Shown here in pieces: positions 20,054-28,592 of a stretch of 44,505 nucleotides of DNA. The position numbers and the translations under genes are program-made. A model generated the notes under the pieces. That model had not been told where the DNA came from. It saw only the letters and a program-made list of their open reading frames with translations, and searched no databases. Numbering within the stretch: the stretch's first letter is position 1; every line of letters begins with the position of its first letter. The DNA comes from Mycoplasmatota bacterium. GTDB lineage: Bacteria > Bacillota_I > Bacilli_A > RF39 > UBA660. The stretch is from assembly GCA_012727915.1 (NCBI GenBank), contig JAAYGD010000037.1:1-44505 (forward strand), written 5' to 3'.

Positions 20054-20758
20054 CTATGGAATTGTAACACTACAAGATACTGAATTGCCCGCATTATCAC
20101 TTACAATATATGTTTTGTTAGTAATACTTTGTCTGTAAATTGCATAGTTTAAACCATCAAAAATATCTCCACTTGCTTTTATTCCACTTCCACCCAAATC
20201 ACTTCTACTTAAATACACGATTTTTCCATATATATCAAAATTAGTATCATTAACTATTGCATCAGTAATTGCAGATATATCAGCTTCATCAATCAAATTG
20301 TTTCCGTTTGCCACATCACACTGGCTAGATATTAAACCACGATTTGTATTAGTTGTTCCTACAATATCAATACACGCTACTGAATCCATTATATCAATTT
20401 CTCCATCATTTGTTGGATCTCCATATTTATATTTTGTTGTAGAACAAGTAGGAGATGTTTTATCAATTCTTACAGTAACTGTTTTTGATGAACTTATAAG
20501 ACCTTTTTCATTTATTGCTCTTACATTAATTGTAGTAACTCCTTCATTACTGACTAAAAAGTTATTACCACTAGTCCAATCCTTAGAGGTATCACCAGTC
20601 ATACTATATTCATATTTTTTAATTCCTGATTCTTCATCTTTTGATCTACTAATTGTTCCACTTACTTGAACCATATTTGTCCACGATTCATAAACTTGAA
20701 TTGTTGGAACACTTGGATTAGTTATATCTTTTGTTGAGACAACAGTATTTGTTATAGT
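20054..20758 (-). pseudogene. 5'-truncated Ig-repeat surface-protein fragment with a dockerin-like insert; paralogous to the C-terminal domains of the 24465-28169 pilin-like protein
   Basis: The frame stays open 28 codons upstream of ATG 20674 (TITNTVVSTKDITNPSVPTIQVYESWTN) up to a TAA at 20761-20759. No signal peptide, only a weak GGA before the ATG. Motifs RIDKTSPTCST, SDLGGSG and YIVSDNAGNS...C.VT match the giant pilin. Confidence 0.6.
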
Positions 20759-24464: not shown

Positions 24465-27400
24465 TTATTGATAACAAGTGTAATAACAAGTATCATAACA
24501 TGTGTCATAACATGTATTATAACATGTACCATAACATGTATTATAACATGTGTCATAACATGTACCATAACATGTGTCATAACATGTACCATAACATGTG
24601 TCATAACATGTATCACATTCATAAGATCTATAACAAGAGCCGCTAGCATAATGAGAAGAACCAAATGTTTTTACACAGAATGCACTGCATCCGCCCGCAC
24701 TAGTTATAGAGTAATTACAACCATAGTTTGATTTTACCGGATCATAGCAATAACATGTGCCAATATAATCCCAATAACAATTACAATCATGTGCATTACA
24801 ACTATATGGATTGCAACTATATGGATTACAACTATATGGATTACAACTATATGGGTTACAACTATACGGATTACAACTATATGGGTTACAACTGTATGGA
24901 TTACAATTATGTGGATTGCAGTTATGCGGATTACAATTATATCCATTACAATTATAAGAAGATACTGTTACCTGACAAGCTCCACTATTTCCCGCAACAT
25001 CATATACTATATAAGATCTTGTAGATGTAACATTATAAAATGTTCCCGCTCCACTTGAATATCCACTTCCTCCAGTGTCAGATGCAGTTACCGTTACTGT
25101 TACACCTGATGTTGAACCAATATTTGTCTTTGCTGTTGAACAAGTTGGTGCTGTTTTATCAATTCTTAATGTATACATATCTGAAGATACACTATAATTT
25201 CCTGCTGCATCTAATGCTCTTACATAGAAGTTCCAATTCCCTCCCCATGTTATTCCCCAATTCGTAGGCATTGCTGAAAAGTTTACATTATCATGAGAGT
25301 ATTGATAACTTGTTACTCCTACTACATCTGATGATGATTGTATTTGATATATATTTCTATTTGTCCATGTTCCACTTGGATATATTGCTCCAGATGTAGA
25401 ATCATATCTTAATGTTACAGTTGGTTTTGTTGGTCTATCTGTATCCGGATTTGCTGCACATGCTGATGTTGCTCCTGCCCATACTCCTCCTGATGCTCTA
25501 CTACTTGCGTCGTATGCTGCGACATGTATCCATGAATAGTATGTTGTTCCAGTATAACTTCCATTTGCTTTTAAATATAATGGATTCATATTTGATGAGA
25601 ATGATGTTCCATCTCCACTCCATCTAAATGGATCTGTTGAGCCACTCCATGCTGATATTTGAGCTGCTGTTGGATATACTCTTGCTGTATCACTATTCCA
25701 ACTTGATACATTTCCTAAATCTCTTGATCTATATGCCGTTCCATCAAATATCCATATTCTATATCCTGCTGCTCCTGTTACAGCATTCCAACTTAAACTT
25801 ACTGTCATACGTCCACTATTTACTGTACCAGTTCTTGATATTGCTGTAAATGTTGGTGATCCTAATGTATTTCCACTTACTGATGATGTTTGAGCTGATT
25901 CTACTAATGTTGCACTCCTTGCTTTTACTTTATAATACATTGTAGTAGACGTTGCTAAACTTCCTTGTACATAACTTGTTGATGTTGTTGTTCCAAGTTC
26001 ACTAAATGTTACATTATCTGTACTTGAATATACTACATATGTTGTTCCTGCTGGATTTGAATTTGCATTCCAACTTACCGTTATTTGTTGTCCTTGTGCT
26101 GTAGTCCCTCTTGTTGCTGCTAATGATGTTGGTACATTTACTGTTGTTGCTACACTTCTACTTCCTGTACCTATATTTCCTACTGCATCAATTATTTCAA
26201 ATGATACTGTATATGTTGTTCCTCCTGCTAATCCTGTATATGTATATGATGAACTTGCACTTGTTGTTACTAAACTTCCATTTAAATAATATTTATATGA
26301 TGATATTCCTGAACCAACTTCATTTACTCCTGCTATTGATAATGCTATTGTTGTTGGTGTTGGTGTTGTTGCAAAACTTGTATATGTTGGTATTGTCTTA
26401 TCTATCTTATATGCGTTTGCTACACTGCATGTTGTTGGTGTGCTTAAATTATTTACATTATCTACTGCTCTTGAACATAATGTATATTGTCCTGTTGCTG
26501 TAAATGTTGCTGTTCCTCCAGACGTTGATGGTGTACATGTTGCTCCCGTTGTTGTACTACAATATTGATAATATCCAAATCCGGATTGAGCATCTGCTCC
26601 TCCTCCTATTGTTATAGGTATATCTGCATTTACCCAATCTCTTGATGTTGGTGTATGTGTTGTTACTGCTGGTGGTGTTGTATCTACTCTATTTATTGGT
26701 GATGTACATACTAATGTATTTAATGATCTATCACTTATTGTTACTGTACATGTATTTCCATGTGCTGATCCCGTTGTACATGGCCCACCCGCTACATTTA
26801 TTCCTGATAATACATCTGTACTACTTGCCAATGTAAATGTTTGTGTTCCACTTGCTTTCCATGGACTTGGATTTGGTGTCCATGTTCCACATACTGGTGC
26901 TGTTCTATCGTATACTACTGTTCCTCCACTTAGTCTTATATCATTTGATATTCCAATATTTCCTGCTCTATCCATATATTCTGTTATTAATCCTACTACA
27001 TCCCCTTGTACTAATGTTGATTCTGCTATTGGTATTGTATATGTCTTTGTTACTGTTGATGTATTTATTCCATTTGTTGTTGTTGGTGTTCTTCCATGTA
27101 TTGTTGATGTTAAACTTCTTACTGGTTCTGTAAAGTTTGTTGTCATTGTTATAATATGCCCATTCTTTGCATACTTATTAAATGTATTATTTGATATTAT
27201 TGTTGTACTTGTTATAAGTGGTTTTATATTGTCATATACTACTAATCCCCCACTTGTTACATTTGTTGCTTCTATTCCTTCATTTTCATATATATCTTCA
27301 TAATCTTTTACCAATACTGATAATGCTTGGCTTACTAATAAACTCTCAAATTCTGGTATTTCATATGTTGCTACCCTTGTATTTCCGCTTCCTGTTACTG

Positions 27401-28169
27401 TTGCTGTTCTTCCTCCTATCAATACTGTTGGATCTGTTACTATCTTACTAAATGTTAAATTTAATGTTACTGTCTCTGAATTCCTTACAAATTTATTGTG
27501 ATATATATTATTACTCTCTGCTATCGCTACTGTTACTGCTGGATATGTACTATCTACTACATTTACTACTCTTGTTACTGGATCTCCTACATTTCCTTCA
27601 TTATCTGTTAAAGAATATGTTAATGTATATGTTCCTATTACATCCTTATTTACTGTTCCTGTTACTACTACTAAATCTGTTATTGTATTTCCATGTCTAT
27701 CAAACGCTACATATCCTGGATCCACATATACTTTTCCTTGCAACAAATAATATGGATCTTCTCCCAATAATATTATTGTTGGTTTTATATCTTCTGTTAA
27801 CAAGCTATCATATACTATCTCAAATTTTACATACAAATCTTCTTCTAATGTTACTTTTACTCTTGCATCTACACCTAGTTTTGTTATATCTTCTTCTTCT
27901 ATTAACCCTATATTTTTTAATGTTTCTAAACTTATTATTGTATAATTTCCTACTATCTTTAAATCTTTTGTTACTTCTTTATTATTTATTGTTGCATAAT
28001 CTCTTGCTGCATCTAATACTAATTCTTCTGTATAACTCTTTGATAATTCATCTGAATTTGTTACCATTCTTCTTATACTTGGAGTTGCTATTAAAACTAC
28101 TACTAAAAGTACTAGTATTGTTGCTAACATCTCTATCATTGTAAATCCAGATTTTTTTGCTTTTTTCAT
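24465..28169 (-). CDS. Giant type IV pilin-like adhesin: prepilin N-terminus, DUF5011-like, several Ig-like/FN3 domains and a Cys-repeat tail
   Basis: Class III signal [15 protein letters not shown] plus hydrophobic helix. ILLGEDPY...YVDPG...[11 protein letters not shown] (DUF5011-like). Repeated D.T.P domain junctions and D.AGN motifs. FN3-like VSW...Y.V...Y.VKA. 32 Cys in the last ~160 aa. Confidence 0.9.
24474..24617 (-). repeat. 12-bp coding tandem repeat (C-Y-[DGNY]-T); 13 Cys including the offset C-D-T unit
   Basis: Plus strand (ataacatgtNNN)n. In-frame Cys codons every 12 nt from 24474 to 24606, plus one at 24615. Confidence 0.95.
24777..24950 (-). repeat. 15-bp coding tandem repeat (C-N-P-Y-S consensus); 13 Cys including the offset C-N-C
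   Basis: Plus strand (ttacaactatatgga)n with synonymous variants. In-frame Cys codons every 15 nt from 24783 to 24948, plus one at 24777. Confidence 0.95.
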
Positions 28170-28190: not shown

Positions 28191-28592
28191 TTATACTTCG
28201 TTTATATCACATAAAACGTTATCGGTTTGATAAGTACCACAAAAAATACACGGAGTGTAAGTATAATTTTCAGTATGAGTTTTAGTAACATATACATATC
28301 CTACACAAAGTGAATTATCAGTTAAATCATAAATTTTAGATAAATAATTGTTATTAGTTAAATCTAATAATCCAATCTTTATTCTTTCATTTAGTATTTG
28401 AGGTAAAGCAATATTATTTTCTAAAACATAATTATTTGATGCTTTTATTATTTCATTTTCTTTTACAGCGTAAGTCTTTAACTTAGTATCATCAATGGAA
28501 ACAAAAACATTTGGAACAATTATTGCCATTATAATTCCTAATACAATTAAAGTTGCTAATACTTCAACTAAGGTAAATGCTTTATAATTCAT
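28191..28592 (-). CDS. Small type IV pilin/pseudopilin-like protein (prepilin-type N-terminal cleavage/methylation domain)
   Basis: MNYKA|FTLVEVLATLIVLGIIMAIIVP, four C-terminal Cys, RBS AGAGGT, upstream TGATATAAT. Confidence 0.88.
   Translation of the reverse strand: MNYKAFTLVEVLATLIVLGIIMAIIVPNVFVSIDDTKLKTYAVKENEIIKASNNYVLENNIALPQILNERIKIGLLDLTNNNYLSKIYDLTDNSLCVGYVYVTKTHTENYTYTPCIFCGTYQTDNVLCDINEV

Follow-up and report, generated by a model that had tools for sequence, protein, structure and literature searches.

How do two repeat arrays built from unrelated units come to carry exactly the same number of cysteines at the end of a single protein? This question is raised by a 44,505-nucleotide stretch of DNA from a Mycoplasmatota bacterium (GenBank assembly GCA_012727915.1, contig JAAYGD010000037.1, positions 1 to 44,505; hereafter the window), in which a minus-strand gene encodes a modular type IV pilin-like protein of 1234 residues. 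Its last 161 residues consist of an array with a cysteine every five residues (arm 1), a spacer (the knob) and an array with a cysteine every four residues (arm 2). We think it rather probable that this tail is a two-arm cysteine ladder, in which nested links from arm to arm staple a hairpin rod bearing the knob. A wider reading, whose chances we would put at about even, is that the tail exemplifies an undescribed extracellular module common to Bacteria and Archaea: a repeat-encoded rod of 2 to ~15 nested Cys-Cys rungs, whose two unrelated arrays change in step under structural selection, which is used in either polarity and can be nested within itself, and which forms here the stalk of a hypervariable stalk-and-knob pilin adhesin in a small-genome anaerobe. 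Lacking a recognizable Dsb or VKOR protein, this organism would then have either another route to extracellular disulfides or rungs that are not disulfides. The parts of the gene discussed first are the following:

24465..28169, minus strand: whole gene, modular type IV pilin-like protein of 1234 residues, stop codon included (from the list of open reading frames and the translation)
24777-24950, minus strand, residues 1074-1131: arm 1, reading CNGYN, 2x CNPHN, 7x [13 protein letters not shown]; 13 cysteines, 15-bp units
24618-24776, minus strand, residues 1132-1184: knob, 53 residues, 6 cysteines
24468-24617, minus strand, residues 1185-1234: arm 2, reading CDT, 11x CYxT, CYQ; 13 cysteines, 12-bp units

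Anatomy of the Tail

Arm 1 is composed of 11 five-residue units of the CNPxx type plus CNC, with 12 cysteines at spacing 5 and one offset, and arm 2 of one offset cysteine and 12 cysteines at spacing 4, its units being CY(D/G/N/Y)T. The last cysteine of arm 2 stands two residues before the end of the protein, the stop codon occupying 24465-24467. The two arms thus hold 12 periodic cysteines each, or 13 each overall, and eight inner cysteines, an even number, lie between the periodic arms; altogether, 32 of the 43 cysteines of the protein are found within its final 161 residues. A first-pass annotation, made from the letters of the window alone, had described this layout of two arrays, a 53-residue spacer and 13 against 13 cysteines, and the translation agrees with it exactly. 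It had also called the units unrelated (15 against 12 bp), and Tandem Repeats Finder likewise reports a period of 15 with 11.8 copies at 24780-24956 for arm 1 and a period of 12 with 12.1 copies at 24471-24615 for arm 2, both with 84% matches. The synonymous variation noticed at the same time is real: the seven CNPYS units of arm 1 are encoded by five DNA versions, all differences between which are synonymous. Since no inverted DNA repeat was found between the arm-1 and arm-2 arrays, the equal counts do not reflect a DNA palindrome, an origin that we considered and rejected.

In the genome to which the window belongs (G000; 872,930 bases in 76 contigs, 25.2% G+C, 93.8% completeness), no other open reading frame (ORF) with such arrays was found. 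Another spacing-4 cysteine run occurs there on the plus strand of contig C63, where a 69-residue ORF contains CVGA four times, followed by CVGNCVVS.

A Two-Arm Module in Bacteria and Archaea

We define the two-arm module as arm-1 units C-N-P-[YH]-x and arm-2 units C-Y-x-T that lie in one ORF at most 150 residues apart, a definition that the window tail satisfies. It was looked for by a homology search with residues 1000-1234 (16 proteins), by a tail-only search among longer proteins (19 proteins), by a scan for the DNA of two arm-1 units in a single genome of each species (85 stretches, 80 of which were used) and by a metagenome scan (53 loci). Thus defined, the module is present in 53 proteins from 19 families or contexts, grouped by the sequence outside the module. 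As judged from record titles and domain matches, it is carried by pilins in metagenome-assembled genomes (MAGs) of Bacilli and Clostridium and by type IX secretion system (T9SS) cargo proteins of Chitinophagales, Cytophagales and Bacteroidia, and is also found in Polyangia, Patescibacteria, Gammaproteobacteria and Hydrogenedentota, as well as in the archaeal Woesearchaeota, Hadarchaeota and Methanosarcinales. The earlier view of the tail as a singular oddity of one pilin was therefore too narrow, the module being widespread outside pilins.

The unit consensus is C-N(88%)-P(82%)-Y/H(62/24%)-x for arm 1 (289 units) and C-Y(84%)-x-T(88%) for arm 2 (300 units) over the 53 modules. Carriers with a visible targeting signal look extracytoplasmic: some have a prepilin signal or a T9SS C-terminal domain, and others, judged by eye, a signal peptide or a membrane helix that precedes the module; in the P0018 family no targeting signal was recognized. 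A search among protein representatives gave 398 matches, and most of the best 150 are unrelated single-array simple repeats such as CVPYN, CNAMQ and CMEWQ; the true modules among those 150 are P0045, P0059, P0086, P0092, P0109 and P0120, with P0109 standing outside the counted 53.

Within the genus, the arm-1 DNA pattern matched twice in five genomes, both times outside ladder ORFs. A third genome of the genus contains, at L162 (G003:C19:9800-11027, minus strand), an ORF that ends in CST, seven CYxT units and CYN-stop, with nine cysteines; it is truncated by the contig end, so that any arm 1 is out of view, and does not adjoin mutS.

No Pfam family matches the tail even at E ≤ 10, no sequence relative of the tail is found in the PDB (best E 0.42), and the ESM Atlas gave no usable match for it. 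Searches of the literature by motif strings and by terms for ladders, zippers and Cys-rich repeats found nothing on the module among the papers listed. Note also that a comparison of eight relatives with PHROGs gave two weak matches only, both to P0028, and does not establish a phage origin of the P0028 family.

Cysteine Counts Match Between the Arms

The two arms were compared by counting the cysteines in the longest strict spacing-5 chain and those in the longest strict spacing-4 chain within 150 residues. Among the 80 loci selected on arm 1, one had no in-frame match, 30 lay in ORFs shorter than 100 residues (mostly chance matches), 17 had no chain of at least three, including five true modules with irregular spacing, and 32 were usable. 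Four of the latter have no arm 2, and in 21 of the 28 that do the counts are exactly equal. Pooled with the homology matches, strict periodic counts are equal in 41 of the 53 modules. When only distinct combinations of family, arm-1 count and arm-2 count are considered, 27 of 39 are equal and 31 agree within one (Spearman 0.78). When the arm-2 counts are shuffled, 4.6 combinations on average are equal against the 27 observed, a value reached in 0 of 100,000 shuffles, and shuffling within families gives a mean of 6.8 against 19 observed, again with 0 of 100,000. These figures are not probabilities, as kin are not independent of each other; it is the within-family test that addresses co-variation.

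Individual cases illustrate how far the counts move together. The syntenic orthologue of the window pilin in G002, a sister species, has 3/3 cysteines against 13/13 in the window; P0018, P0019 and P0021, members of one family, have 13/13, 9/9 and 10/10; pilin modules of 12/12, 9/9, 9/9, 6/6, 5/5 and 3/3 are found, and a Woesearchaeota protein has 13/13. Forms that are off by one (6/5 and 6/7) also exist and may be intermediates of in-step change. The first-pass annotation had proposed co-variation among homologs as a check of its idea, and arm counts do co-vary, also within families.

Orientation of the Arms

Where the spacing of an arm is irregular, the other arm mirrors it. This is best seen in a membrane-anchored family (L022, L023, L044, P0024, P0030 and P0049), whose members have an N-terminal zinc-ribbon-like part, scoring below the Pfam cut-off, and one membrane helix. 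In this family every second rung is non-Cys in both arms, giving gaps of 5,9 in one and of 4,8 in the other, with one to at least three such double units. The gaps read 5,9,5,9,5,9,5,2 | 4,10,4 | 3,4,8,4,8,4,8,4 in P0024 and 5,7,5,2 ... 3,4,6,4 in L044. The spacing of P0049 is not palindromic: its arm 1 reads 5,9,5,9,5,14,9 and its arm 2, read backwards, 4,8,4,8,4,12,8, so that an antiparallel alignment fits at six of seven gaps and a parallel one at three of seven.

Two further features bear on orientation. A C-x-C closing arm 1 and a C-x-x-C opening arm 2 are both turned toward the knob, and 14 of 45 forward modules have the two together. Loops of only 5-9 residues without cysteine join the arms in 12 of the 53 modules; on geometric grounds, these cannot accommodate a parallel return. 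Taken together, equal counts, mirrored spacings and short loops strongly support, by comparison of relatives, a nested one-to-one antiparallel register of the two arms.

Modules with the reverse order, arm 2 first, make up eight of the 53; the reverse order is seen in P0023, P0092 and P0109, and in L025, L033, L055, L060 and L081 from one Polyangia MAG. P0023 is reversed within the otherwise forward P0018/P0019/P0021 family. In reversed modules the C-x-C and C-x-x-C lie at the base and not at the tip, an arrangement that resembles a circular permutation. A nested double ladder, with an outer 7/7 pair enclosing a short reversed inner pair and a four-cysteine knob, is found in Chitinophagales GDSL-lipase/T9SS proteins and is identical in all eleven of them (L015, L043, L074, L082, P0006, P0011, P0013, P0014, P0016, P0017 and P0029).

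Proposed Structure of the Tail

Where the arms are equal, an even number of cysteines lies between them in 40 of 41 modules (31 of 32 when only distinct ones are counted, binomial p 1.5e-8), as complete disulfide pairing predicts. The values found are 0, 2, 4, 6, 8, 10 and 26; these are not all multiples of four, which argues against Cys4 metal sites, and the odd counts per arm (13, 7, 5) argue against pairing inside one arm. The rungs would most simply be disulfides. Of the disulfide-ladder hairpin envisaged in the first-pass annotation, the antiparallel, nested partner arms have stood up to equal counts, mirrored spacing, 5-9-residue loops and even inner cysteines, whereas cross-linking by disulfides, rigidity and twist stay assumptions.

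In the structure that we propose, arm 1 would leave the last Ig-like domain of the pilin, the 53-residue knob with its six cysteines would form the tip, and arm 2 would return antiparallel to arm 1. The k-th outer cysteine of arm 1 would pair with the k-th outer cysteine of arm 2, the innermost pairing being that of CNC with CDT-C, so that 13 nested cross-arm links and three links in the knob, in the simplest case 16 disulfides, would result. Such a covalently stapled hairpin rod, presumably rigid, would keep the variable knob off the pilin body, its length being set by the number of repeats; by standard geometry it would measure ~7 nm if arm 2 is helical (6 Å per unit) and up to ~15 nm if it is extended. 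The pilin would be processed by the prepilin peptidase of the genome and shown on a type IV filament, where it would probably act as an adhesin.

Evidence Against the Ladder and Rival Explanations

A number of observations weigh against this structure. Strict counts are unequal in 12 of the 53 modules, only some of which were resolved by hand as interruptions. A CNC-S-x-C end can create spacing 5 by chance, and hand counting then turns the 11/10, 10/9, 5/4 and 4/3 of L109, L110, L112 and P0009 into 10/10, 9/9, 4/4 and 3/3, while in P0023, P0025 and L019 a unit one residue short interrupts the chain; real mismatches remain in L035 (3/7), L090 (3/6) and P0086 (12/4). Long spacing-4 arrays also exist without arm 1, with 24 cysteines in P0034, 35 in P0072, 30 in P0032 and 12 in P0125 (units such as CYDS, CYDP and CWDT); they may be self-folding, radical S-adenosylmethionine (SAM) targets or spurious ORFs. 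The pilin body itself (residues 1-1073) has 11 cysteines, an odd number, of which Cys904 is isolated and far from the others. As regards oxidation, DSBA, DsbB, VKOR and Thioredoxin_4 had no match in G000 (93.8% complete), Thioredoxin_4 and VKOR are absent from all seven genomes of the genus that were searched, and of five other module-bearing genomes only that of the Woesearchaeota has Thioredoxin_4/VKOR. Near-identical DNA occurs, moreover, in sequencing runs from anaerobic digesters, landfills and bioreactors, all reducing habitats. Of the 20 public runs that contain part of the window, four serve as evidence here.

Structure prediction offers no confident ladder either. For the 176-residue tail alone, AlphaFold2 (AF2) gave a mean predicted local distance difference test score (pLDDT) of 42.4, drawing arm 2 as a helix (~70) and arm 1 with a turn every five residues (~30); for residues 1000-1234 with an 11-row alignment both arms scored 25-36, the helix of arm 2 thus falling from ~70 in one run to ~30 in the other, and the knob, with four short strands at 45-58, is unreliable. 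The AlphaFold test by which the first-pass annotation had hoped to see pairing returned no contacts. With Foldseek, the model of residues 1000-1234 had no PDB match at E ≤ 0.001, weak rows of FN3, PKD and Ig-like type concerning only the preceding domain, and a complex prediction of residues 1070-1133 against residues 1181-1234, scoring 0.00 and run without controls, is evidence neither way.

The repeat counts themselves are unequally secured. The longest internal exact repeat of arm 1 is at most 26 bp, and a 371-base contig from a different study (run X7) covers 24582-24952 with 12 substitutions and no gaps, so that the arm-1 count has been seen independently. Within arm 2, 46 bp recur exactly at an offset of 24 bp, and, again to the disadvantage of the ladder, public contigs (Logan) tile this arm but none bridges it, breaking inside the array; its count, known from one assembly, may be two units off if the assembler worked with a word length below 47. 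The earlier worry about assembly artefacts is eased for arm 1 but not for arm 2. In one X7 contig, arm 1 lacks 45 nucleotides (three units) at its beginning, and contigs of runs X2 and X4 diverge beyond ~7 arm-2 units, weak hints that relatives may vary in length.

The lack of a known disulfide-forming enzyme in G000 and the genus and the reducing habitats speak for another chemistry, in which the proposed pairing of the arms is kept but metal-bridged thiolates serve as rungs, with, for example, Fe, Zn, Ni or Cu held between arms or neighboring rungs in a metal-thiolate ribbon. Two-coordinate rungs would satisfy count matching and parity equally well, and position 4 of arm 1 alternates between Tyr (62%) and His (24%). 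We nevertheless regard metal rungs as unlikely: the free exchange of His for Tyr does not suit them, neither total nor inner cysteines come in multiples of four, and odd rung numbers (3, 5, 7, 13) are common, unlike in Cys4 sites. One family also loses rungs pairwise to non-Cys residues with the neighbors undisturbed, and the module is found, by record titles, in Chitinophagales, Cytophagales and Polyangia, which are largely aerobic. Equal counts, mirrored spacing and parity would hold just as well if arm 1 were zipped to arm 2 of another subunit, producing dimers, bundles or a mesh of pilins or pili; the 53-residue knob is long enough for such a swap, and the tail forms the free C-terminal end of a protein of a surface filament. 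The Cys-free loops of 5-9 residues in 12 of 53 modules strongly favor an intramolecular hairpin, however, and modules are also found inside single-copy T9SS enzymes and membrane proteins, which makes intermolecular pairing distinctly improbable.

Two further explanations were considered. In one, suggested by the names of the NCBIfam models TIGR04114 and TIGR04117, a radical-SAM maturase would act on arm 2 as a 'Cxxx repeat' and convert its cysteines in the cytoplasm to thioether or other cross-links. TIGR04114 does respond to arm 2 (14.2 bits with the tail, 16.1 with the whole protein), as does TIGR04117 (17.9 bits); the relative P0007 passes TIGR04114 (24.5 against a cut-off of 20), and two relatives are named 'modification target Cys-rich repeat protein' by JGI. 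Yet both scores of the window protein are under the cut-offs (20 for TIGR04114, 50 for TIGR04117), the maturase TIGR04115 (rSAM_Cxxx_rpt) has no match at E ≤ 0.001 in the 93.8% complete G000 and exceeds its cut-off in none of the five other module-bearing genomes, and thioethers to non-Cys residues need no equal cysteine counts in two arrays; this explanation has very little to recommend it. The other holds that there is no structure, the arms being independent, slippage-prone low-complexity tracts whose 13/13 is coincidence or assembly artefact. Both arrays are indeed tandem repeats with recent duplications, arm 2 having its 46-bp exact repeat, both structure predictions are unconfident, and databases contain many unrelated simple 5- and 4-residue Cys repeats. 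We find it hardly credible all the same, given equal arms in 41 of the 53 modules and also inside families, at levels that none of 100,000 shuffles reached, purely synonymous differences among the CNPYS units, mirrored irregular spacings and even parity in 40 of 41 modules. The covalently stapled, intramolecular ladder remains our preferred reading of the tail.

Comparison With Known Systems

A cysteine at every fourth residue, as in arm 2, is also found in the NCBIfam families TIGR04114 ('Cys-rich repeat', tSAM_targ_Cxxx) and TIGR04117, but an arm-1 partner is not part of their definition, and the tail is not filed under either family. Hairpins with nested, regularly spaced Cys pairs are known from twin CX3C and CX9C proteins and from plant alpha-hairpinins, and glycocins, in the portion of their literature covered here, have two or three nested disulfides between hairpin limbs whose regular cysteines follow the same nested order as is proposed for the module. 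The spacing of arm 2 is that of CX3C, and AF2 draws arm 2 as helical, with low confidence. These helical hairpins have two or three rungs and the same spacing in both limbs, whereas the module combines spacings of 5 and 4 with many rungs of variable number; arm 1, moreover, cannot be a regular helix, since it has a proline every five residues.

The stalk-and-knob shape recalls the bovine ultralong heavy-chain third complementarity-determining region (CDR-H3), a long two-stranded stalk bearing a small, disulfide-rich, hypervariable knob. To our knowledge the stalk of that region, a beta-ribbon, has no disulfides arranged as a ladder; it is not encoded by repeats and shares no homology with the module.

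A likeness in topology is seen with theta-defensins, which have a cystine ladder, and algal HAP2, which has a cystine-ladder-like motif; in these, according to the parts of PMC6327110 that concern them, antiparallel segments are joined by parallel nested disulfides in three rungs. Two antiparallel segments in nested register are common to these proteins and, by comparison of relatives, to the module, in which the disulfides would be as proposed above. In the former the rungs number three, the length is short and fixed, and the geometry is that of beta-strands, and there is no sequence similarity to the module; the latter would have 2 to ~15 rungs, repeats of five and four residues, a proline in each arm-1 unit and variable length. 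Differently from theta-defensins, with the same spacing on both strands and a cyclic backbone, it has spacings of 5 and 4 and is linear with a free C-terminus. The name 'cysteine ladder' has been used for something else in a fucoidan lyase, where the relevant part of PMC9410043 describes a stack of free cysteines in a beta-helix. The module thus appears to be an extended, repeat-encoded form of the nested-disulfide hairpin and apparently has not been described.

Should the pairing be real, the module would be a natural rod with digital control of its length through the number of repeats and with a covalent staple between its two halves at each step. Surface proteins would thereby have a new principle of construction, and protein engineers a ready-made scaffold. 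For evolution, the puzzle is that two separate microsatellite-like arrays must change in step; for biochemistry, the question is how dozens of extracellular Cys pairs are formed or kept in anaerobes that lack a known oxidase.

Divergent Tails in Sister Species

The same syntenic pilin has three different ends: a 13-rung ladder with a 53-residue knob in the window, a 3-rung ladder in G002 and direct-repeat arms in G001. The knob sequences of the window and the sister species are mutually unrelated. A fast-changing distal piece borne by a pilin would fit a binding tip; in this organism, the tail is likely to be the functional end of a giant adhesin carried on a pilus, one in which sister species differ sharply. 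The stalk-and-knob picture drawn in the first-pass annotation sits well with these tails, that is, with the 3/3 miniature of G002, the 12/12 tail of G001 and the unrelated knobs.

The G001 tail (L002, G001:C15, minus strand) occupies the last ~250 residues of a 918-residue ORF and has two direct-repeat arms with 12 cysteines each around a 66-residue knob; it may be a second kind of count-matched ladder. Its units resemble C-x-TGSNT-C-x-GGYNT-C, the gaps are 6,5,5,7,7,5,5,7,7,5,3 in one arm and 6,5,5,7,7,5,5,7,7,5,2 in the other, and a small W-rich end domain follows the arms. In several pilins, namely L038, L110, L111, L112, L121 and the G001/G005 tails (L002, L005), a conserved end piece of ~40 residues (...E-x-W-x-x-W-S-x-W ... 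C ... C-x-T-x-Y-Y-stop) comes after the ladder, which in these cases is an outgrowth between two domains and does not end the protein.

Pilin Identity and Gene Neighborhood

The remaining features of the pilin and its upstream neighbor are these:

28080..28169, minus strand: prepilin N-terminus [15 protein letters not shown], with G-1, F+1 and E+5, then a hydrophobic helix
27558..27770, minus strand, residues 134-204: bacterial surface Ig-like domain (Pfam PF16403, 56.1 bits, E 4e-15)
24960..25172, minus strand, residues 1000-1070: last Ig-like beta-sandwich before the tail, between Cys1010 and Cys1065, conserved in relatives
28191..28592, minus strand: upstream pilin gene, 133 residues, GspG-like N-terminus (N_methyl 24.7 bits; TIGR02532 21.1 bits against a cut-off of 16.3)

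A class III signal can be read directly at the N-terminus of the 1234-residue protein, as [24 protein letters not shown] / [11 protein letters not shown] followed by the hydrophobic helix. The protein exceeds the cut-off of TIGR02532 (IV_pilin_GFxxxE; 20.8 against 16.3 bits) and lies just below that of Pfam N_methyl (21.1 against 21.2 bits). Its body contains more Ig-like repeats besides the domain at residues 134-204, and the one at residues 1000-1070 was modeled by AF2, with the 11-row alignment, as six strands at pLDDT 84-94. The product of 28191..28592 is a probable partner pilin, and G000 encodes a prepilin peptidase (Peptidase_A24, 68.5 bits, G000:C59) and assembly ATPases of the T2SSE type (418.4 and 95 bits). 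Prepilin signal, domains, upstream pilin, peptidase and ATPases together place the protein among the modular type IV pilins, as PMC8179133 uses the term, and the giant pilin of the first-pass annotation is thereby upheld by the TIGR02532 score, the pilus machinery genes and the second pilin upstream. As presented in that source, modular pilins have C-terminally grafted modules, which are proposed to lie at the filament tip and to serve in adhesion; PilB and PilC of Streptococcus sanguinis, like the window protein, combine an N-terminal pilin with C-terminal functional modules. By analogy with PilB (PMC8179133), the window pilin would be incorporated in the filament at its tip. The modules treated there are vWA, lectin and others, and no Cys-ladder tail is among the architectures in the passages covered here.

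Downstream of the pilin gene lies mutS. Elsewhere in the window, a minus-strand ORF of 206 residues at 20054..20674, without a recognizable signal, has an OmpL47-type domain match below threshold (35.8 bits against a cut-off of 40). By eye, it has a D-x-N-x-D-G-x-I-D stretch, which we take to recall dockerin/EF-hand repeats and for which there is no Pfam match at E ≤ 0.01; its end is the same kind of Ig-like piece as that found in the pilin.

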